64,000 nt of DNA from Sedimentisphaerales bacterium (GTDB taxonomy: Bacteria; Planctomycetota; Phycisphaerae; Sedimentisphaerales; SM23-30), in assembly GCA_963663965.2 (NCBI GenBank), contig CAXXFK010000028.1:128001-192000 (forward strand), given 5' to 3'. Each line of letters opens with the position of its first letter. Position 1 is the stretch's first letter. Under the pieces are notes generated by a model, which made no database searches, was not told where the DNA came from, and worked only from the letters and a program-made list of their open reading frames with translations. This document shows positions 27,081 through 59,359 of the stretch, one piece after another. Position numbers and translations under genes: made by a program.

Positions 27081-28178
27081 TTATTCAGAAATGACTATTC
27101 TAAAGCCGATGGTTTTGTCTCTTAGTATTGGGCTGGCATTGCTTCTATAATCAGATGTGCATTGTTCTGGACCACTTTGCCAGCTTCCGCCTTTGATAAC
27201 TCTGCTACCACCCACTTCAGGTCCGGCCGGGTCTTGGATAATGCTAATAGGGGGCCATGGCTCGGCTTTATACCAGTCTTTGCACCATTCCCAGGCATTG
27301 CCATACATGTCATACAGGCCATATAGGTTTGGCTTTTTGCTGCCAACCTTTTGTGAACTCAGCATATATCTATTGTTATACCAGGCGAAATCCTGCAGCA
27401 TGGTTTGCTCTGTCCCAAAGAACCATTTATCGAATTCAGAGGCTCCTCTGGAGGCTATTTCCCATTGTAGTTCAGTTGGCAAGCTATATCTGATACCATC
27501 AAAGTCGCTAAGCCATTTACAGAACTTCAATATATCGTCATAGTTGACCATTACCACAGGTTTATCAAGGTCATTAAATGTATAATCTTCACTTAATTGG
27601 TAGCAATTGTAATTGTCTAAGATCAATGGTCTGGTTTCAGGCTCAATTTCCGATATATTAGTAACTTTAGGGTTAAAGTTCTTAGTGTTGTTCAGATAAT
27701 CAAGATATTGTCCCAGTGTTATCTCTGTCCTGCTTATCCAGAATCCTTTGGAGAGGACAAGGGTTACCTGTTTGTTCCTTGGCATCATTCCAGTTCTATC
27801 AACTACAGTTTTTTCAATTTGACCGTTGGGGACCCAGTTAAAAACAATGCCAGACTTTGCTGTGATTGATATTTCAATGCCATTGTTATAGAGTGTAACA
27901 GCTGTATCTTTGTCAACTTTTGGAATATGGTTAAGCATGTATTGAACGTTACGGCTTTTGTCTTCCAGAAGGCTTTTACAGTAATCTATTGTTGCCAGAT
28001 CGCCGGGAGTGCTGTTTAGTTTATCTGCCTGGTATTTCAATAGTATTTCTAATGGTGGTTGAGATACCTGCCCGAAACAGATATTAAATGAGAGAAATAA
28101 CATAAGGTAAAATGATAGCTGGAAACAGCTGGTTGATAATGTTTTTTTTAATATATGGTCCATAATATTACACCGCAA
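27081..28178 (-). CDS. Formylglycine-generating enzyme (SUMF1/FGE-sulfatase) domain protein
   Basis: LPTELQWE..SRG, PNLYGLYDMYGNAWEWC, RVIKGGSW, IGFR. Confidence 0.88.
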   Translation of the reverse strand: MRCNIMDHILKKTLSTSCFQLSFYLMLFLSFNICFGQVSQPPLEILLKYQADKLNSTPGDLATIDYCKSLLEDKSRNVQYMLNHIPKVDKDTAVTLYNNGIEISITAKSGIVFNWVPNGQIEKTVVDRTGMMPRNKQVTLVLSKGFWISRTEITLGQYLDYLNNTKNFNPKVTNISEIEPETRPLILDNYNCYQLSEDYTFNDLDKPVVMVNYDDILKFCKWLSDFDGIRYSLPTELQWEIASRGASEFDKWFFGTEQTMLQDFAWYNNRYMLSSQKVGSKKPNLYGLYDMYGNAWEWCKDWYKAEPWPPISIIQDPAGPEVGGSRVIKGGSWQSGPEQCTSDYRSNASPILRDKTIGFRIVISE

Positions 28179-28405
28179 TCCTTTTAGTGGTTAATATACC
28201 TGATATTATATTTTATCTATATTTCAAATCAAGGTTTATAGCAGTTTTATGTAGTTTAAGTTGAATACTGAACCTGACCGATACTAATTAAGTAGAAATA
28301 TAAGATATATGATTATACAAAACGGTATGGTACGGTATTTGCTTTAAGTATAATTATGAATGTGTGCTAGTGTAAGTTATTTATTTCTAATTATTTATAT
28401 ATATT

Positions 28406-31135
28406 ATGGCTGAAAAGAAAACACAAAAACGTATAAAAAAGAAAGAACAACCTGCGGAAAAGTCAGAAATAGAAGTATCTGATGCGACTGAACCTGCCAT
28501 TGAGGCAGATGCCGCTAAGAAAGATTCTGAAACTAACCAGGGATCTGTGAAAAAAGAACCAGATTTTGATATTTTTAATATGACATGTCAGGTTGACACT
28601 TCAGATAGTGATATTGAAGATGTTGATATTTCTAAAAATGTTATCGAAAATGGTAATATCACTGCAGTTGTAGTGAAAAAAGATATGTCTCTTGCTGCAA
28701 AGAAAAACGAAGATAAAGAAAATGCAGAAAGCGGCGTAGATGATCATATAGATGATATCCACAGATATGTTATTCCATCTCGAATTGGTATTATGGCATT
28801 GCGAAATGTTGTTCTGTTTCCGGGCATAGTCGTGCCGTTGGGGGTAGGCAGGCCGCAAAGTCAGGCATTGCTCAAAGAACTTGATGCACAACCTGGTACC
28901 GATAAGGTTTTTGCTGTCGTTACTCAGGTTGATCCTGATATTGACAATCCCGGCTTTGATGATGTCTATGCTGTTGGTACAATTGTGGCTGTATTAAAAA
29001 CTATCAATATGCCGGATGGTAATAAGACAGTAGTAGTTCATGGTCTGATGAGATTCAGGGTCAAAAACTGGATTACCAGCGAGCCTTATCTTCAGGCTGA
29101 AATTGAACCATTGCCGCCAAAGAGAAATGATAAGTCATTGGAACTGGAAGCCCAGATAAATAATGTCAATAATATGGCTGAGAGAATTCTGCAGCTATCG
29201 CCTAATATTCCGGAAGAAGTTCAGGTTATTATGCAGAATATTGATGATCCAGGGCCATTGGCCGATTTTCTGGCGGGTAATATCCATTTCTCTCAGGAAG
29301 AGAAACAGGGGGTATTGGAAGCAATCGAAATCAAGTCCAGGCTTAATAAACTTTCTGTCGCTATGGCAAACCAGCTGGAGATGCTGGAACTGAGTGAGAA
29401 GATCCAGAGCAAGGTTCATCAGGCGATCGACAAGAACCAGCGTGAATATTATCTGCAGGAGCAGTTAAAAGCTATTCAGAAAGAGCTGGGACAGGATGAT
29501 GGCAGCTCTTCAGAGGTTATTGAGCTGGAAGAAAAGATCCGTACTGCCTGTATGCCTCAGAAGGTTGAACAGGAAGCAGAACGTGAGCTTCAGAGATTAC
29601 GCCAGATACCGGTGATGAGCCCAGAGTTCAGCGTTTTAAGTAATTATTTGGAATGGCTGTGTGAATTGCCTTGGTCAGAGAGCACCGAAGATAATTTGAA
29701 TATTACCAGGGCCAGACGTGTTCTGAATGCCGACCATTTTGGACTGCATAAGGTAAAGAAACGTATCTTAGAATTTCTGGCCGTGCGCAAGCTTAATCCG
29801 GAAGGAAGAAGTCCTATTCTTTGTTTTGCCGGCCCTCCAGGTGTTGGTAAAACATCTCTTGGCCAGAGTATTGCCAAGAGTATGGGGCGAAAATTCATTA
29901 GAATGTCGCTTGGCGGCATAAGAGATGAAGCAGATATTCGTGGACATAGAAGGACATATATTGGTTCTCTGCCGGGCAGGATAATGCAGGAGATTCGTAA
30001 GTGCGGTAGTAATAATCCGGTATTTATGCTGGATGAGCTGGATAAGATCGGAGCTGATTTCAGGGGTGACCCGGCATCTGCTCTGCTGGAGGTACTCGAC
30101 CCGCAGCAGAATAATACATTTACAGATCACTTTATCGATCAGCCTTTTGACCTGTCGCGTGTTATGTTCATTGGAACAGCAAACTATATGGAAGCTGTTC
30201 CGCACGCTCTAAAGGACAGGCTTGAAGTTATTTATATACCTGGCTATACAGCACAGGAAAAACTTAATATCGCCAGAAAGTATCTGGTTCCTCGTCAGAT
30301 GAAGGAAAATGGTCTGAATGACAAGACCTTTGACATTAAGGATGAGGCTCTTGAGAAAGTTATTGATAAGTATACCAGGGAGTCTGGTGTGCGTAACCTT
30401 GAGAGAGAGATTGCGACCGTCTGTCGTTCGGTTGCTGCTGAGATAGCTGAAGAGAAGAGAAAGTCTGCTAAGATCGGCATACGCCATATTGCAGATATTC
30501 TTGGCCCGGAACGCTACGAATCAGAAGTTGCCCTGCGTACCAGTACTCCTGGTGTTTGTACCGGGCTTGCATACACTCCGGTTGGTGGTGAGATATTATT
30601 TATCGAGTCTACCTTGTTGCCGGGTAAAGGTCAGCTGATACTTACCGGACAGCTTGGCGATGTCATGAAAGAGTCTGCTCGTGCAGCTTTGAGTTTCCTT
30701 AAGAGTATGGCACTGGATGCCAAGGCCAGAAGAGTTGAGCCATTTGCTACACTTAAGGATATTCTATGCGATACAGAGACAATGGACCGTAGAGACATCC
30801 ATGTGCATGTGCCGGCTGGCGCGGTGCCAAAGGATGGGCCATCGGCTGGTTTAGCTATGTTTACTTCTATTGCTTCTTTGCTTACCGGAATACCTGTTCG
30901 CAGCGATGTTGCCATGACAGGTGAGATAACACTACGAGGACTTGCTATGCCAATCGGCGGCTTAAAGGAAAAACTGCTGGCCGCTAAAGAAGCTGGTATC
31001 AAAACTGTGATCTTGCCAGAGCGGAATAAAAAGGACCTGGCTGAAGTGCCGAAAGAGGTCACTAAGTCCCTGATCTTCCATTTTGTGAAAAATGCAGACC
31101 AGGTACTGAAGCTTGCTTTAGATATGGATAAGTAG
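28406..31135 (+). CDS. lon: ATP-dependent Lon protease
   Basis: LON_N VLFPG; GPPGVGKTS; RGHRRTYIG; LDELDK; catalytic PKDGPSAG and GGLKEK. Confidence 0.97.
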   Translation: MAEKKTQKRIKKKEQPAEKSEIEVSDATEPAIEADAAKKDSETNQGSVKKEPDFDIFNMTCQVDTSDSDIEDVDISKNVIENGNITAVVVKKDMSLAAKKNEDKENAESGVDDHIDDIHRYVIPSRIGIMALRNVVLFPGIVVPLGVGRPQSQALLKELDAQPGTDKVFAVVTQVDPDIDNPGFDDVYAVGTIVAVLKTINMPDGNKTVVVHGLMRFRVKNWITSEPYLQAEIEPLPPKRNDKSLELEAQINNVNNMAERILQLSPNIPEEVQVIMQNIDDPGPLADFLAGNIHFSQEEKQGVLEAIEIKSRLNKLSVAMANQLEMLELSEKIQSKVHQAIDKNQREYYLQEQLKAIQKELGQDDGSSSEVIELEEKIRTACMPQKVEQEAERELQRLRQIPVMSPEFSVLSNYLEWLCELPWSESTEDNLNITRARRVLNADHFGLHKVKKRILEFLAVRKLNPEGRSPILCFAGPPGVGKTSLGQSIAKSMGRKFIRMSLGGIRDEADIRGHRRTYIGSLPGRIMQEIRKCGSNNPVFMLDELDKIGADFRGDPASALLEVLDPQQNNTFTDHFIDQPFDLSRVMFIGTANYMEAVPHALKDRLEVIYIPGYTAQEKLNIARKYLVPRQMKENGLNDKTFDIKDEALEKVIDKYTRESGVRNLEREIATVCRSVAAEIAEEKRKSAKIGIRHIADILGPERYESEVALRTSTPGVCTGLAYTPVGGEILFIESTLLPGKGQLILTGQLGDVMKESARAALSFLKSMALDAKARRVEPFATLKDILCDTETMDRRDIHVHVPAGAVPKDGPSAGLAMFTSIASLLTGIPVRSDVAMTGEITLRGLAMPIGGLKEKLLAAKEAGIKTVILPERNKKDLAEVPKEVTKSLIFHFVKNADQVLKLALDMDK

Positions 31136-44487: not shown

Positions 44488-44560
44488 TCCCTGATAGCTC
44501 AATTGGTAGAGCGAGCGGCTGTTAACCGCTAGGTTCCAGGTTCGAGCCCTGGTCGGGGAG
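44488..44560 (+). tRNA. tRNA-Asn (GTT), CCA not encoded
   Basis: Acceptor TCCCTGA/TCGGGGA plus G; D-arm GCTC..GAGC; anticodon arm AGCGG-CTGTTAA-CCGCT; T-loop GGTTCGAGCC. Confidence 0.97.
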
Positions 44561-45041: not shown

Positions 45042-45042
45042 C

Positions 45043-46442
45043 CGTACCGTACATTTATTCATACATAGTTAAATCTTTGCTCATTAACATGTTAATACTC
45101 AGAAGTTGGGCCGAAAAAAACTTAACTATACCGAACTTGTTTTAAATGATTTGCCCATAGTAATTCAAATCGATTCATTTACTGTAAAGATTGGTTTGCT
45201 CCGAAGACACTACCTGTGTCTTATTCCAATGTTGAATCCACCCTGCTGCTCTTATGCAGCCAACCTGTGATAAGACTTCAACAGCCCACCCAAACGCTCA
45301 ATGCAAACAATCTCAGAGGTCTTATCAGTCTCATGTTTGGGCGCAATGATTCGACCTAACGATTGATGAATTCTTTCGTGATGATAATATTTTTGGAATT
45401 CGCTAAGAACATAATCAAGCTGTTTAACCGATGACAGTATCAGGTAATTCAAACACTCATATTTGACTGTTTTCACGAATCTTTCCGCGATGGCATTCAA
45501 GTCTGGGCTTTTTGCTGGAAGCTGGATCGGTTCGATGCCAGAGCTTCTCAGCATTTCATGAAAACCTTCTGATCGATACAATGGATCACGATCATGGATG
45601 AGATAGCGTTTCCCTTTTAGAAAACCATCCTCGCAGTCAGTAAGGATTCGTGCAACCTGTTTCATATACTGACCATCAGGCTGAAGTTGAATAGGAGCGA
45701 AGAATACTCTTCTGCTGGAAAATTCAATGGCAAAGAAGACCGTGCAACGAATCAGTTTACGCCCGACCAGAAGCTCAATGGTGAAAAAGTCGCATGCGGC
45801 CATGACCTCCCAATGGCTTTTTAAGAATTCATGCCAGGTTGATCTAACGATCAGATCAGGTTCCGGATCATAGCCGTTTTCAATGAGAATATTTTTGACC
45901 GATGATTTGCTAATCTCAAAACCAAGATACTCCATTTGATCTTTGATTTTCTCATAACCCCATCGAGGATTTTCCTTCTTGAATCTGATGACCAGATTGA
46001 CTATTTCAGTTGTTATCGGTGGTCTGCCTACTTTGCCCCGTTTGGAAGAACCATCGTACTTTTCAGCGATGAGTTTGTTAAACCACCGAATCACCGTGTC
46101 TGCTGTAAACAACTCGGTGCATTGCTCAAGCACTTTCCGGCTGAGCCGTTTCGCTTTAGCAGCAATTCGCATTCGTTGAGTATTCGTCAAAATAATTCGC
46201 TTGTTCTGCTTTTCCTGGAGCTCAATCAGAACTCGAACCTGTTCTCGAAGATAGTCTATTGCTTGGTAAAGCTCCTTGTCTATACAATACGCTACGCAGG
46301 TAATCATTGTGAGCCAAAGATTGTTTTTCATCGTAGCCAGATGCTAACAAATCGATAGTAATTCTGCAATAACGTTCATACGAACGCATTTTATGTCCAT
46401 GTTTTAAAAGAGGTTATGGAAAGTAAATTTATGTACCCCACG
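45043..46442 (-). mobile_element. Integrase-core (rve, IS481-like) insertion sequence
   Basis: Ends CGTACCGTACAT / CGTGGGGTACAT (inverted) enclose the transposase; no target duplication seen. Confidence 0.75.
45252..46331 (-). CDS. DDE transposase, integrase core domain
   Basis: ENPRWGY HTH; ACDFFT, LIHDRD, NAIAERFVKTVKYECL, HHERIHQSL, LGGLLKSY. Confidence 0.92.
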   Translation of the reverse strand: MKNNLWLTMITCVAYCIDKELYQAIDYLREQVRVLIELQEKQNKRIILTNTQRMRIAAKAKRLSRKVLEQCTELFTADTVIRWFNKLIAEKYDGSSKRGKVGRPPITTEIVNLVIRFKKENPRWGYEKIKDQMEYLGFEISKSSVKNILIENGYDPEPDLIVRSTWHEFLKSHWEVMAACDFFTIELLVGRKLIRCTVFFAIEFSSRRVFFAPIQLQPDGQYMKQVARILTDCEDGFLKGKRYLIHDRDPLYRSEGFHEMLRSSGIEPIQLPAKSPDLNAIAERFVKTVKYECLNYLILSSVKQLDYVLSEFQKYYHHERIHQSLGRIIAPKHETDKTSEIVCIERLGGLLKSYHRLAA

Positions 46443-53213: not shown

Positions 53214-53458
53214 CGAAAATCTTTTTGTACATTTACATTTATGATTATTCTTCCCTCGAAAGCTTCTGAATTAGACCAAGATCACAATACAAATTCTGAT
53301 AAAAAATATGCTTTATCCACTGCCTGAAATATCGAACAGTGACAACTATAAATAAGCCTATGAATGAACTTCTGATCAGAACAGAATTTCACTAGCTTTA
53401 TAGCCACCCCTGATCTCTTTTAACTTTTAGAAAATTTTCCCAAGAGCCTATCTTATCC

Positions 53459-53963
53459 CGTACCGTACATTTATTCATACATAGTTAAATCTTTGCTCAT
53501 TAACCAGTTAATACTTAGAAGTTGGGCCGAAAAAAAACTTAACTATACCGAACTTGTTTTAAACGATTGGCCCATAGTAATTCAAATAGATTCATTTACT
53601 GTAAAGATTGGTTTGCTCCGAAGACACGACACGTGTCTTATTCAAATGTGGAATCCACCCTGCTATTCTTATGCAGCCAACCGGTGATAAGACTTCAACA
53701 ACCCACCCAAACGCTCAATGCAAACAATCTCAGAGGTCTCATCAGTCTCATGCTTGGGCGCAATGATTCGACCTAACGATTGATGAATTCTTTCGTGATG
53801 ATATTATTTTTGGAATTCGCTAAGAACATAATCAAGCGGTTTAACCGATGACAGTATCAGGTAATTCAAACACTCATATTTGACTGTTTTCACGAATCTC
53901 TCCGCGATGGAATTCAAGTCTGGACTTTTTGCAGGAAGCTTTATTGGTTCTATTCCTGAACTT
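53459..53963 (-). mobile_element. Partial second copy of the IS481-like element (3' end of transposase plus terminus)
   Basis: Near-identical direct repeat of 45043-~45543; a TAT>TAA stop near 53802 breaks the transposase remnant. Confidence 0.9.
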
Positions 53964-54080: not shown

Positions 54081-54288
54081 TTAACGGGTATTGAGCCAAT
54101 GATTGACCAATATAAGCAAGTCATTGCTGTCAACGATCAAATCGCTCGTTAAGTCTGCCCGTTCGCACAAGCCGCAGTCGGACATCAGCCAGTGATTGGC
54201 AAATTGGGCGAAATCAATCAGATCAACCTGGCCATCGAGCTGCAAATCGCCGGGCAGAGGCAGCATGGTAAGATAGGCTTCAGCAAAA
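54081..54288 (-). pseudogene. 3' remnant of a secreted protein ending in a planctomycete dockerin-like module
   Basis: PGDLQLDGQVDLIDFAQFANHWL..C..ADLTSD..VDSNDL...HWL; 5' part lost at the IS256 end. Confidence 0.75.
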
Positions 54289-54309
54289 GGTAGCGTCAAG
54301 AATCTTTCG

Positions 54310-56245
54310 GTAGCGCCAGGTAACTGGCAAGGAGTAGCGGATGCAAGAGCCGTACAATGAAGGTTTAGCAAACCACATTGGCCCCGAGTCATGTGGGCAT
54401 ACCGGTAACGGTATGCTTGAAGCGTTGACAGGGGAAGATGCGGGCTGGGTATTGAGCCGCGTAAGTTTGTACATTATAGAACGGAGTGCCGACGCTGTCG
54501 AAAATGTCGGAAGGCAACACCGGATGTCTTATTATCGCGAGAGACATTCCGGACTCCGCGCGGTCGAAGACCCCAGGCACGCATGGACACTTCTTGCACA
54601 GGAACTGGGAGATCCCTTGTTTGGCCTCAGGACACATTATCCTGTGGTCCGCACAGAAAATCCAATTGGAGTACTGCTGTGATGAACGAACAGGGGAAGT
54701 CGGACAGGCCCATAGTACCTAAGAAGTTCTCGAACAAAGAGGCTGGTTGCCATGCCTTGGCGGAGAGGATAGAGGGAAGGGGCCTGACCAAGGGCAATTC
54801 GTCTCTACTGCACAAGTGCCGGACACCGGGCCGGGAAAGCTTGCCAAACGCATTAGAACGAATACGACAGGCAGCCACCCGGGATAAACAGCTAAAGTTT
54901 ACTTCCCTGTGGCATCATGTCTATCATGTCGACCACCTGAGAGAAGAATTCTATCGCATTAAGCGGCAGGCTTCCCCGGGTGTGGACGACCAGACATGGC
55001 AAGAGTATGAGGCCGGGTTAGAGAACAATCTCAATAGCCTGGCAGAACGACTGAGAAAGGGGGCATATCGGGCAAAACCGGTAAGGCGGGTATTCATCCC
55101 CAAACCGGATGGACGCCAGCGTCCCATTGGTATTACTACCATTGAGGATAAAATCGTCCAGCGTAGCACGACTACGGTATTGAACGCTATTTATGAGGCT
55201 GACTTCAAAGGCTTCTCCTATGGCTTTCGTCCCGGTCGCAGTGCTCACAACGCCTTAGATGCTCTCTATGTCGGCATACTCAAGCGTAAGATAAACTGGG
55301 TACTCGACGCTGACATCAGCGGCTTCTTTGATGCCATCGATCACGATTGGCTGATTAGATTCGTCGAGCACCGAATCGGAGACCCGCGAGTAGTACGGCA
55401 TATCAAGAAATGGTTGAATGCTGGAGTCGTGGAAGAAGACAAACTTCTGCAGATCAAGGAAGGCACCCCGCAAGGTGGGAGCATATCGCCATTGCTGGCG
55501 AATATCTACCTTCATTATGTATTTGATCTGTGGGCTGACCAATGGCGAAAGCGTAACGCCAAAGGGCATATGATTATCGTTCGATATGCTGACGATATCG
55601 TTGTCGGATTCCAATATCAATCGGATGCCAATAGATTTCATACGGACCTGCAGAATCGATTTGGCAAGTTCAAGTTGAAGCTTCATCCGGCCAAAACCCG
55701 GCTCATTCAGTTCGGCCGCTATGCGACAGAACGAAGGACTACTCAAGGTAAAGGCAAGCCTGAGACATTCGACTTTCTTGGCTTTACGCACATCTGTTCC
55801 AAGTCAAGTAAAGGTCGGTTTATGTTGCTCCGGTTGCCGATGAGAAAGCGGGTGCAGGCCAAGCTAAAGGAAATCAAGGAACAGCTCAAATACCGGCGCT
55901 ATACCTCGATTCCGGAGATGGGCCAGTGGCTTCACTCTGTTATCAGCGGCTGGTACCGATACTACGCCGTTCCTAATACATCTCGCTATCTTGGCACCTT
56001 TCGCCGTAGGGTCGCCTGGCTTTGGTTCAGAGCGTTAAGAAGACGCAGTCAACGAAGCCGCATGACCTGGAGGCGAATGTACCAACTGATAGCAAGATGG
56101 CTTCCGCAGCCTAAAATTCTGCATCCGTACCCCCAGGCACGCTTACAAGCTGCTCGTTATGACCCGAGGTAGGAGCCGTATGCGGTAGTTCCGCTCGTAC
56201 GGATCTGTGCGGGGGGCTGGGAGTAATCCCAGTCCCTACCGCGAC
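54310..56245 (+). mobile_element. Group II intron
   Basis: Domain V GAGCCGTATGCGGTAGTTCCGCTCGTACGGATC (from ~56173); domain VI ending ..CCCTACCGCGAC; RT ORF inside; boundaries defined by restoring the IS256 TIR. Confidence 0.9.
54682..56172 (+). CDS. ltrA: Group II intron reverse transcriptase/maturase, no endonuclease domain
   Basis: IPKPDGRQRPIGI, SYGFRPGR, DADISGFFD, GTPQGGSISPLLANIYL, RYADD, FDFLGF, GWYRYY; no HNH. Likely start MNEQGKSD. Confidence 0.95.
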   Translation: MNEQGKSDRPIVPKKFSNKEAGCHALAERIEGRGLTKGNSSLLHKCRTPGRESLPNALERIRQAATRDKQLKFTSLWHHVYHVDHLREEFYRIKRQASPGVDDQTWQEYEAGLENNLNSLAERLRKGAYRAKPVRRVFIPKPDGRQRPIGITTIEDKIVQRSTTTVLNAIYEADFKGFSYGFRPGRSAHNALDALYVGILKRKINWVLDADISGFFDAIDHDWLIRFVEHRIGDPRVVRHIKKWLNAGVVEEDKLLQIKEGTPQGGSISPLLANIYLHYVFDLWADQWRKRNAKGHMIIVRYADDIVVGFQYQSDANRFHTDLQNRFGKFKLKLHPAKTRLIQFGRYATERRTTQGKGKPETFDFLGFTHICSKSSKGRFMLLRLPMRKRVQAKLKEIKEQLKYRRYTSIPEMGQWLHSVISGWYRYYAVPNTSRYLGTFRRRVAWLWFRALRRRSQRSRMTWRRMYQLIARWLPQPKILHPYPQARLQAARYDPR

Positions 56246-56349
56246 CACATTTTTTATTAGTCTTTCATCTGGTAGAGTCTTTCAATGGAGGAGGGAGGGA
56301 CAACTCCCTGCCCTGCCTCCCCGAGGGGAGGCAAAAATTTATCGGACGA

Positions 56350-57591
56350 TCATGCCATGACCACCTCCTCTTTTTCAGCTTTTTTCTCCTTCTCCAACTC
56401 ATACAAATGATCCATATTCAAATAACGCCTCGTACCCCATTGGGTGCCGGCAATATGTCTCAGGCGGGCCGTGGCCAGCATCAGGGCCGAGTGACCATCC
56501 GGGAAATTGCCCACCACGCGCGTACGACGACGAATCTCACGCATGATCCGCTCCAGTGGATTATTGGTTCGCAACTGCCGCCAGTGCTTGTCGGGATATT
56601 GATAGTAAGTGAGTGTTTCGAGATAGCTTTCCTGGACCAATTCAGCGGCCTTGCCCAGTTTCATCTCCCGCAATTTGACAATCACTTGCTCGGCCTTCTG
56701 GATCGCCGCCTGGCGGTCTTCCTGGGCATGGATGGCCTTGAGCATGGCCGCGACCTCTCGCACCTTCTTGCGCGGCACATGACTGAACACGTTGCGATAC
56801 CAGTGGACCGTGCAGCGCTGCCAGTCGGCCTCCGGAAAAACCTCGGCCAGCGCGTCCACCAGACCCAGGCATTTGTCGGAAACAAACAGGCGAACACCCT
56901 GCAGGCCGCGGCGCTTTAAATCGCGTAAGAAACCGCCCCAACCGGCTTTATCCTCTTTGGCGCCCTCGCAGGAACCCAGCACTTCGCGATAGCCCTCCTG
57001 ATCGACGGCAATGGCCACCAGAATCGAAACATTCTTGACTTCGCCGCCCCAGCAACGTTTCAAAACGATGCCGTCCAGATAGACATAGGGATACGACCCT
57101 TCCAGTTTGCGGTTGCGCCATTGGTCGATCTGTTGATAGACTTTCTGATTCAGATTGCTGATGGTGCCCGCACTGACACGGGCGCCCCACAGGCTTTCGG
57201 CGATGTCTTCGATACGCCGGACCGAAACGCCGGCCAGATACATCTCGATCAGGGCCTCTTCTACCGAAGACTCCCGGCGTTTATAGCGCTCGATGATGGC
57301 GGTTTCAAAGGTCGTTTTTCGCAGCTTGGGCATCTTCAAATTCACTTCGCCGGTCGTCGTATGAAACTTACGCGGATAATAGCCCGCCCGGGTATCGGTG
57401 CGGGCCTGGGTATGTTCATAACGCTGGGCGTTGCAGAGCTGGTCCGCCTCGGCGTCCAGCAGGGCATTGAGCGTGTCTTCCACACTCTGGCGCACCATCT
57501 GGCCCAACTGATCCTTCATCTGGGATTGGTCGATTTTTAAAATTTGGTTCAAGTTCCTAACGTCACTGGTCGATTCTTCTGTTTGACTCAT
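56350..57591 (-). CDS. IS256-family (Mutator) transposase
   Basis: EMYLAGVSVRR, YVYLDG, FVSDKCLGL, WQRCTVH, TNNPLERIMREIRRRT. Confidence 0.96.
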   Translation of the reverse strand: MSQTEESTSDVRNLNQILKIDQSQMKDQLGQMVRQSVEDTLNALLDAEADQLCNAQRYEHTQARTDTRAGYYPRKFHTTTGEVNLKMPKLRKTTFETAIIERYKRRESSVEEALIEMYLAGVSVRRIEDIAESLWGARVSAGTISNLNQKVYQQIDQWRNRKLEGSYPYVYLDGIVLKRCWGGEVKNVSILVAIAVDQEGYREVLGSCEGAKEDKAGWGGFLRDLKRRGLQGVRLFVSDKCLGLVDALAEVFPEADWQRCTVHWYRNVFSHVPRKKVREVAAMLKAIHAQEDRQAAIQKAEQVIVKLREMKLGKAAELVQESYLETLTYYQYPDKHWRQLRTNNPLERIMREIRRRTRVVGNFPDGHSALMLATARLRHIAGTQWGTRRYLNMDHLYELEKEKKAEKEEVVMA

Positions 57592-57697
57592 AGTCAGTCC
57601 TTTCATTTGGTGGTAGGTTTCGGTTTCAAAAACTTCATCGACCAGATGAAGGACTGTTTTTACGGTGTCCTATAATATGTGCGAAAAATATTTTACC

Positions 57698-59359
57698 TTA
57701 TCCGAATATCTGCTGCATGTCATGTCCATTCTCGGTGTTTGTCGGATTCCAGGCGTTGAGTGTGCGGGCATTGTCTCTAAGCCGGTAAATATCCTCACTG
57801 TTTAGCCCCTTGGGATCTGCTAACAGGATATCGATTTGAGAAATAAGTGAGGGGATCTGGAGGGTCAGTTTTTGGTATTGCGACCAGGCTTGAAGCTTCT
57901 CCTGCATAAAGGTGATCTGGTTGGGGCTCAGTCCAAAGGGATACTTCACTGTTATAGCTGTGGTCTTTTTAGTATTAAGATCTTCTGCCTTCACATTGAT
58001 AATCATGCTGGCATCGATATCGAATGTTACCTCGATCTGAGGAGTGCCTCTTGGGGCGGGGGGAATGTCATTGAGAGTCAGGGTGCCCAAATACAGGTTA
58101 TCTTTAACAAATTCGCTTTCTCCCTGGTAAACATTCACATCGACCTTGGTTTGATCCATCGTTGCAGTAGTGAAGGTTTCGGAATTAGAAGTTGGTACGG
58201 TTGTATTCTTTTGGATAATACGATTAAAAACCCCGCCTTGAGTTTCCACGCCGTAAGTTGCAGGGACGATATCCAAGATAAGGGAATGCTCTTGTCCCAA
58301 TAGAATTTCAGCCTGAATAATGGCCCCCTCAGCCACACAGGTTATAATGTCAACACCGGTAAAGGGTTTAACCGATAGTTGTTCAGCGATATTCCGACGG
58401 AGCATTGGCATGTTACTGGCACCACCGATAAGTAATAATGCGTTCAGCTCTTCATACTGATGCTTGGTGCTTTTGAGTGCCTTTTTCAGTATAGTCACGG
58501 CGCGATTCATGAGGGATTCAGCATTTTTTTCGAATGCATCCCTTTCGATGACGACATCCAGAGCCTGAATTTCGTTGTTAATGGTCACGAAACCGGGGAG
58601 ATAAATCCTGGACGAAGGGGCGGTGCTCAGTTCAATTTTTGCCCGTTCAGCAGCCTCTCTGATAATTAGTTTTTGAGTGTGATCCAGGTTGGGTAATGAA
58701 CCACAGGTCAACTTGAGCTGATCGTGAATCATATCGACGATAACCTGATCGAAGTCATCGCCTCCTAGGGATGAGTCTCCTTCGATACATATAACGTCGT
58801 AACAATCTTCATCGACACTGACAACCGAGACATCCAGAGTGCCTGCTCCCATGTCACATACAAGTATGTTCCCGCAGATATCTTTATCGTGTCCGTATGC
58901 CAGAGCGGCGGCAGTAGCTTCATTCATCAGCCGATGAACATTTAAGCCGGCAATCTTAGCAGCTTCAATCGTTGCGCGTCGCTGGCTTTCACTGAAGTGG
59001 GAAGGAATAGCAATAACCACATCGTGGGCCTCCTGTCCCAGATACGCCTCCGCACGGAGTTTTAATTCCATAAGGATGTATGCCAGAATTTCTTGCGGAT
59101 AAGCCTTCCAGCCATCCCAGTCGGTCTCACTCATACGGCCAACCGACCGTTTGGCGGAACTAACCGTGATATGCGTTCCACGGTAACGGTCCGGGTGGCG
59201 CACGGCATTGTTGCCGGCAAAAATACCTCCATTTGGATTTACCAGAATCTGTGAGGGGATACTGTATACACCGTTTTTATCGGGTATAATCACAGGTTTG
59301 CCGTTTTCATAGAAGCCTACGACGGACTTTGATGTTCCCAAGTCGATACCTAAAATCAT
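57698..59359 (-). CDS. Hsp70-family protein (DnaK paralogue), 3' end probably truncated by IS256
   Basis: GIDLGTS, NEATAAALAYG, DMGAGTLDVS, LGGDDFD, GGASNMP, VYQGE, PPAPRGTPQIEVTFDID; stop codon lies inside the IS256 TIR. Confidence 0.9.
   Translation of the reverse strand: MILGIDLGTSKSVVGFYENGKPVIIPDKNGVYSIPSQILVNPNGGIFAGNNAVRHPDRYRGTHITVSSAKRSVGRMSETDWDGWKAYPQEILAYILMELKLRAEAYLGQEAHDVVIAIPSHFSESQRRATIEAAKIAGLNVHRLMNEATAAALAYGHDKDICGNILVCDMGAGTLDVSVVSVDEDCYDVICIEGDSSLGGDDFDQVIVDMIHDQLKLTCGSLPNLDHTQKLIIREAAERAKIELSTAPSSRIYLPGFVTINNEIQALDVVIERDAFEKNAESLMNRAVTILKKALKSTKHQYEELNALLLIGGASNMPMLRRNIAEQLSVKPFTGVDIITCVAEGAIIQAEILLGQEHSLILDIVPATYGVETQGGVFNRIIQKNTTVPTSNSETFTTATMDQTKVDVNVYQGESEFVKDNLYLGTLTLNDIPPAPRGTPQIEVTFDIDASMIINVKAEDLNTKKTTAITVKYPFGLSPNQITFMQEKLQAWSQYQKLTLQIPSLISQIDILLADPKGLNSEDIYRLRDNARTLNAWNPTNTENGHDMQQIFG

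Follow-up and report, generated by a model that had tools for sequence, protein, structure and literature searches.

A group II intron clade in Sedimentisphaerales that probably specialises on the terminal inverted repeats of an IS256-family element

The closest described counterpart of the element reported here is RmInt2 of Sinorhizobium meliloti GR4, an endonuclease-less, multi-copy group II intron that uses both inverted repeats of the insertion sequence (IS) ISRm17 (PMC4615759). Its authors noted that two repeats double the number of targets and place one of them on the lagging-strand template (PMC4615759). We analysed 64,000 nucleotides from a Sedimentisphaerales bacterium (assembly GCA_963663965.2, contig CAXXFK010000028.1, positions 128,001 to 192,000; hereafter the window), in which a group II intron occupies the right terminal inverted repeat (TIR) of an IS256-family element. 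Like RmInt2, this intron is endonuclease-less and multi-copy and uses both inverted repeats of its IS; imperfect pairing through exon-binding site 2 (EBS2, a candidate in the present intron) and a 2-nt linker are also reported for RmInt2 (PMC4615759). RmInt2, however, belongs to class D, whereas the present intron is class-E-like and falls outside the RmInt2 lineage. ISRm17 is an ISNCY-family element (PMC10194956), whereas the present target is of the IS256 family, and RmInt2 was found in one strain, whereas the habit described here extends to at least 10 genomes of several families. The original prediction for this locus was of an IS-end parasite that probably immobilises its host; homing into the TIR has held up, but the strategy is not new (RmInt2; PMC4615759). 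The present intron is an independently evolved variant of that published strategy, and as such a second independent case of IS-end use by introns, in another intron class and IS family and across several bacterial families.

Other systems share parts of this arrangement. RmInt1, which targets ISRm2011-2, and E.c.I4, which targets IS3-family transposases, also have IS homing sites, and RmInt1 is biased toward the lagging template (PMC1802570, PMC3522654). E.c.I4 interrupts the transposase gene (PMC3522654), where splicing could in principle restore function, whereas the present insertion spares the gene and splits a DNA end. IS4321 and IS5075 likewise use the terminal repeat of another element, the TIRs of the Tn21 family, as a fixed target; they rely on an IS1111-family DNA recombinase (PMC8269217), whereas the present element is an RNA retroelement. 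With bacterial class E (IIE) introns it shares a 5-nt domain V loop, a terminal-loop alpha-prime, a dominant EBS1 and a weak EBS2 (PMC3753933), and it differs from them in its 6-nt 5' end (GTAGCG, GAAGCG or GATGCG) and fixed TIR target. In the literature searched, which lay outside subscription journals and the intron database, we found no description of an intron in IS256 TIRs. RmInt1 reportedly interrupts the transposase gene of its IS target. The present site falls, by position, within the stretch bound by the transposase of an IS256-family element, and offers a natural test of DNA-level braking between mobile elements and of whether one intact end suffices for copy-out/paste-in transposition in vivo.

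The host element is 1,478 bp long and present in six copies in the genome. Five of these carry near-identical copies of the intron, always between TIR bp 21 and 22, as expected of the predicted homing into an IS256 TIR. Target duplications of 8 bp directly flank five of the six IS copies (the window copy lacks one) and, lying right outside the ends, fix the true IS termini. The intron is in the right TIR on contigs C28 (window), C25 and C6 and in the left TIR on C2 and C21; the copy on C13 is empty, and no copy is occupied at both ends. Intron-free copies of the IS end on C13, C2 and C21 make the intron edges exact, and neither junction can be slid. Removal of the intron rebuilds the IS end, as had been proposed, and the rebuilt right end matches the left end (57676-57702) at 19 of 27 positions by hand count. 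The features of the interrupted element are as follows.

54289..54309, plus strand: outer 21 bp of the right TIR, forming the 5' exon; intron-binding site 1 (IBS1) at 54304-54309 (TIR bp 16-21) and candidate IBS2 at 54295-54301 (bp 7-13)
54310-56245, plus strand: group II intron, class-E-like, 1,936 nt, starting GTAGCG and ending AC
54466-54472, plus strand: candidate EBS2, pairing with exon positions -9 to -15 (TIR bp 7-13), 5/7 for each TIR
54499-54504, plus strand: EBS1, CGAAAA, just after the invariant U54498 (delta position)
54566, plus strand: EBS3 (G), pairing with C56246, the first base of the 3' exon
54682..56172, plus strand: intron-encoded reverse transcriptase (RT)/maturase, 496 aa from the start shared by homologues, open from 54583, with a YADD motif
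56171..56245, plus strand: domains V and VI, with an AGC triad and 5-nt loop UAGUU (V) and a bulged A (VI)
56246..56251, plus strand: inner remainder of the right TIR and start of the 3' exon; IBS3 is C56246
56350..57606, minus strand: intact IS256-family transposase, 418 aa, 99.8-100% identical across the six copies
57676..57702, minus strand: left TIR, empty in the window; homing site between 57682 and 57681; -10-like TAAAAT at bp 8-13 (57695-57690)

The intron protein matches TIGR04416 at 375.7 bits (cut-off 300), and its open-reading frame (ORF) lies in domain IV. Its Pfam hits are of RT type only, the C-terminus extends about 95 aa past the RT domain, and no endonuclease domain was detected in a Pfam/profile scan. 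Domains I-IV match the Rfam family group-II-D1D4-6 at 182.7 bits; the Intron_gpII score of 38 bits (E 4.8e-5) is slightly below the cut-off of 40. At the alpha-prime position, 54370 and 54536 covary and are paired in 95% of 125 sequences (A-C in the window copy). A 5-nt domain V loop and a stem-loop-tip position of alpha-prime are class E features (PMC3753933), the latter found also in class F. The protein is 51% identical to that of the pRmeGR4b locus at which the class E intron S.me.I4 is placed (PMC5894124) and 32% identical to the other RT there; the Rfam model is the same as for that locus. A quick protein tree for class assignment contained one reference only and gave long-branch warnings. 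Contigs from two runs of two studies, which are DNA or unlabelled, omit precisely 54310-56245; the empty IS copies explain them, and they are no evidence of splicing. Multiple identical insertions in the genome imply that the intron has been mobile recently. The intron start with the last exon base (54309-54320) resembles the right IS tip (54289-54300) at 10 of 12 positions. This likeness may be due to chance: other clade members begin GATGCG or GAAGCG, and it stops before the subterminal site.

Target recognition was examined across 136 distinct related insertions, of which 131 were scored (four introns within introns and one without a callable start were left out). The six nucleotides homologous to EBS1 form, on average, 5.49 of 6 possible pairs with the exon end, against 2.51 +/- 0.10 in 2,000 shuffles, and 117 insertions form at least five pairs (shuffled maximum, 20). 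Since pairing is kept across 86 different EBS1 sequences, the covariation is real; in one genome (G069), EBS1 CGAAAC faces the exon GTTTCG, a compensatory change. The 5' ends of the 131 class-E-like insertions differ (GTGCG 52, GAAAGCG 44, GAGCG 14, GATGCG 9, GAAGCG 7, GTAGCG 5), GTAGCG having one base more than GTGCG, and EBS1 pairing stays in register despite this. EBS1 forms five of six pairs with the exon of the window copy (A-C mismatch at -6) and six of six with the left TIR. The proposal that CGAAAA is EBS1 is thereby borne out by covariation, but the small hairpin drawn around it occurs in the minimum-free-energy fold only and is absent from the centroid; the Rfam stem is drawn otherwise and still leaves EBS1 in the loop. 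EBS3 and exon position +1 share 1.58 bits of mutual information and are 97% Watson-Crick (n=68). The covariation scan covered exon positions to +1, and its per-position part used the 117 best-pairing records, which makes it circular for -1 to -6. A weaker signal around 54466-54468 pointed to the candidate EBS2, whose register is the best of eight (42 of 56 pairs over eight targets, versus 17-31 in the seven others). If a site must, besides pairing, be followed by CAC and then two A/T bases, 28 genomic sites remain, and the seven of these with at least five IBS2 pairs are exactly the genome's empty TIRs. These data suggest that the protein recognises the first 3' exon bases (CAC plus A/T); protein-side reading of distal exon bases has been shown for RmInt1 and RmInt2 (PMC4615759). 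A sigma-70-like promoter (11/12 match) lies over EBS1 and the EBS2 loop on the minus strand (54501-54473), facing out of the intron 5' end; the scan gave 8 such sites versus 5.2 expected overall.

The same target is used in other genomes. A DNA search of the order (401 genomes) matched 19, and clade records, defined by a 6-nt start and the clade 5' stem, numbered 12 in eight genomes besides the intron's own. Close relatives in nine other genomes insert at the same TIR position, and 123 distant insertions lie elsewhere. Against a profile of TIR bp 1-15, scores of at least 5 bits are reached by 16 of 18 clade 5' exons (10 of 12 outside the intron's own genome), by none of the 123 non-clade insertions (maximum -3.2) and by 0.12% of random sites. 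Full-length introns stand next to an IS256 transposase at two left ends in G069 and one right end in G162, the 3' intron junction in G284 is within a left TIR, and left-TIR-like 5' exons occur also in G034, G156 and G325. The remnant of a truncated IS hosts the third intron copy of G069; the tip of this remnant is no longer TIR-like, and IBS1 and IBS2 pairing is kept. Domain-I sequences of the clade, a group defined by intron sequence, form one branch with support 100/100, and in other families, introns whose proteins are 65-77% identical occupy the same base. The original prediction had named homologues in unrelated flanks as telling against it; we found these in the wider family (55-63% protein identity) and not in the close clade, and TIR homing is thus a single-clade trait.

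Scans with the intron protein reached mainly distant relatives. In a protein scan of genome loci (best 80 of 154 matches), none of 78 had an IS256 transposase at the intron boundary; at one (L003), a 29% IS256-transposase match lies about 2.3 kb from the intron. A metagenome protein scan gave only 53-62% relatives among the matches listed, viral contigs gave none, and plasmid matches were all below 60%. Proteins 71-80% identical to the intron protein exist and are known as proteins without DNA context. A class-wide pattern search found no TIR-clade locus beyond the order, its two-mismatch matches being chance save for one non-clade intron. On the IS side, the best copy from each of 29 other genomes gave 49 readable ends, three with an intron; each of the 46 others, which are empty, has TTCGC at bp 18-22. 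CTT or CTC replaces CAC after the homing site in some related IS ends (L278, L281, L284, L286). All 10 observed intron 3' exons begin CAC, and the CTT/CTC ends may be escape variants.

What the insertion does to the IS can be approached through ISCth4, another IS256-family member, whose transposase contacts bp 7-11 and 14-25, whose donor ends shorter than 25 bp integrate poorly, and whose junction promoter is split between right bp 6-11 (-35) and left bp 8-13 (-10) (PMC7780238). The present transposase is a Mutator-type DDE enzyme that matches PF00872 and NF033543 (366.6 bits, cut-off 150). The TIRs are imperfect, with -35 (right bp 6-11) and -10 (left bp 8-13) boxes at the same positions as in ISCth4; the outward -35-like TTGACG lies at 54294-54299 on the minus strand and is TTGACA in three of six copies. 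The subterminal TGTAAA of ISCth4 and other IS256 members is not present at these ends, which have TTCGCAC instead, and the ISCth4 footprint therefore transfers by position only. By position, the insertion point cuts the region equivalent to bp 14-25. The split transposase-binding DNA would stay split after splicing; because splicing cannot mend a DNA site, the occupied end should be crippled and fail as a donor, and the intact transposase gene of the occupied copy could still act in trans. By analogy, transposition of an occupied copy would be reduced, which we consider moderately likely, and immobilisation of the window copy, part of the original prediction, is plausible. In vitro, both ends were integrated from an ISCth4 junction that retained just 14 bp of one TIR, the recipient end being bound weakly (PMC7780238); an IS with one occupied end may therefore be damped without being dead. 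The target should also be hard for the IS to alter because its own transposase needs the same sequence.

Which end is occupied appears to follow replication. All five introns lie on the G-rich strand: GC skew is positive for 5/5 at every scale tested, and gene direction agrees (p=1/32, one-sided). A lagging-template bias has been measured for RmInt1 and RmInt2 (PMC1802570, PMC4615759), and by inference from these the ribonucleoprotein would reverse-splice into the lagging-strand template at the replication fork. With its two TIRs facing opposite ways, every IS copy would offer one favourably oriented end, which would account both for one intron per IS and for which end it takes; double occupancy was found in none of nine IS copies with both ends readable. 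Replication direction thus probably selects the TIR used. The left TIR had been proposed as a second target; two left insertions here and more in G069 and G284 agree with this, but the free site in the window (57681/57682) is then probably on the disfavoured strand, and the remaining favoured site is predicted to be the right TIR of C13. Alternatively, transcription direction could set the end, with introns homing or persisting at sites where read-through transcription from the host runs across the 5' exon. Genes near the introns do run mostly the intron's way in all five copies, and a 21-bp exon leaves little space for an IS promoter ahead of the intron. Yet averaging the fourfold-site skew across genes of either direction likewise gives positive values for 5/5, and the lagging-template bias was measured in introns that are themselves endonuclease-less; we find this alternative unlikely. 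At L208 (G069:C1:2342500-2348500), an intron-bearing IS lies within an oppositely oriented left-end fragment of the same IS, the TIR of which is empty, which accords with the strand rule.

The age of the insertions bears on two further explanations. The three right-end copies show six IS differences and no intron difference (p about 0.007 under joint copying), and two G069 copies show eight differing IS columns (seven events) and no intron difference (p about 0.003). As introns are identical where their host ISs differ, homing came after the IS copies had spread and diverged. Chance, or one ancestral insertion multiplied by IS duplication, TIR-TIR inversion or misassembly, would have to be squared with independent insertions in both ends and several genomes and with introns of 65-77% identity at the same base in other families. 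Near-identical repeats are prone to homogenisation in assembly, and the window copy lacks a target duplication, but we regard this explanation as highly improbable. Inversion of the IS core between the TIRs is excluded, left-end insertions having left-type sequence on both intron sides. It is more conceivable, if still doubtful, that an IS split at one end transposes through its intact TIR as donor and that the intron also moves as DNA cargo. The 14-bp ISCth4 junction integrates in vitro and the split end here retains 21 bp; no IS has both ends occupied (0/9); and in G069, two copies that differ in their 8-bp target duplications are occupied at the same end. On the other hand, no IS haplotype is common to two occupied copies, the ISs differ more than the introns do in both genomes tested, the C28 copy is nearest to one occupied at the left and the C6 copy to the empty one, and 5/5 strand agreement is unexpected after random DNA transposition. 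We found no sign of composite transposition, and no IS circle joint among the 15 joints listed, an absence that contigs cannot establish. Speculatively, and with about the same low likelihood, the intron's three guides may overlay the transposase-binding site and both junction-promoter halves, yielding a stable, damped IS-intron composite that spreads by copy-out/paste-in. Replication bias would then fill one end only, leaving the other a competent donor. If so, a left-end intron would stand directly behind the junction promoter, and a retroelement would spread by RNA homing and DNA hitchhiking while tuning its host IS.

We thus favour, with considerable confidence, a clade of endonuclease-less, class-E-like introns specialised on the TIRs of one IS256 subgroup, with a fork-biased choice of end. 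Several points weigh against it. The TIR profile came from 32 distinct intron-free ends, partly of the same genomes, and two of the 18 clade exons (G069_c and G303) fall below the TIR score. RNA pairing alone permits 535 genomic sites, compensation at EBS2 is not significant (p=0.11, guides permuted among six genomes), and the rule leading from 28 sites to the seven TIRs was framed post hoc, with the data already known. Chance, too, would lead one to expect no doubly occupied IS (p=0.24). On C6 the strand signal is weak (skew of 0.02-0.03 at fourfold sites). Of the 11 regions in other genomes, seven had positive skew, two negative and two near zero, and many of these regions were short contigs with old fragments. 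G069 has two dnaA genes and a skew that switches sign many times, which makes skew a rough proxy for fork direction. The dating is subject to gene conversion and assembly polishing, and signs of IS recombination (columns 147 and 1473) weaken it.

The genes on either side of the window IS appear to be cut, as listed here.

54081..54287, minus strand: gene remnant in the right flank, last 68 codons, 5' part missing; its final domain, which we take to be dockerin-like, is repeated many times in the genome
57698..59359, minus strand: Hsp70-like ORF in the left flank, its stop codon within the left TIR, apparently interrupted by the IS

Lying without a target duplication between two different cut genes, the window copy has probably undergone a deletion afterwards. 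Other copies in the genome have been altered as well. On C2, a decayed intron 5' fragment (G000:C2:53420-56190) follows left-TIR-like sequence; about 2.6 kb of different repeated sequence interrupts this decayed intron, and an intact copy is 3 kb away. The C21 IS copy holds a second element of about 1.3 kb, with seven near-identical genomic copies, between its left end and transposase, and the C21 intron has a 1-base insertion near the ORF end (G000:C21:26465-27789 and 27852-29788). Elsewhere in the window, 45042-45546 and 53458-53963 form a 500-bp duplication of 94% identity, the first copy lying about 500 bp past a tRNA gene (44488-44560); the duplication and tRNA gene suggest an integrated island around a run of radical-SAM genes.

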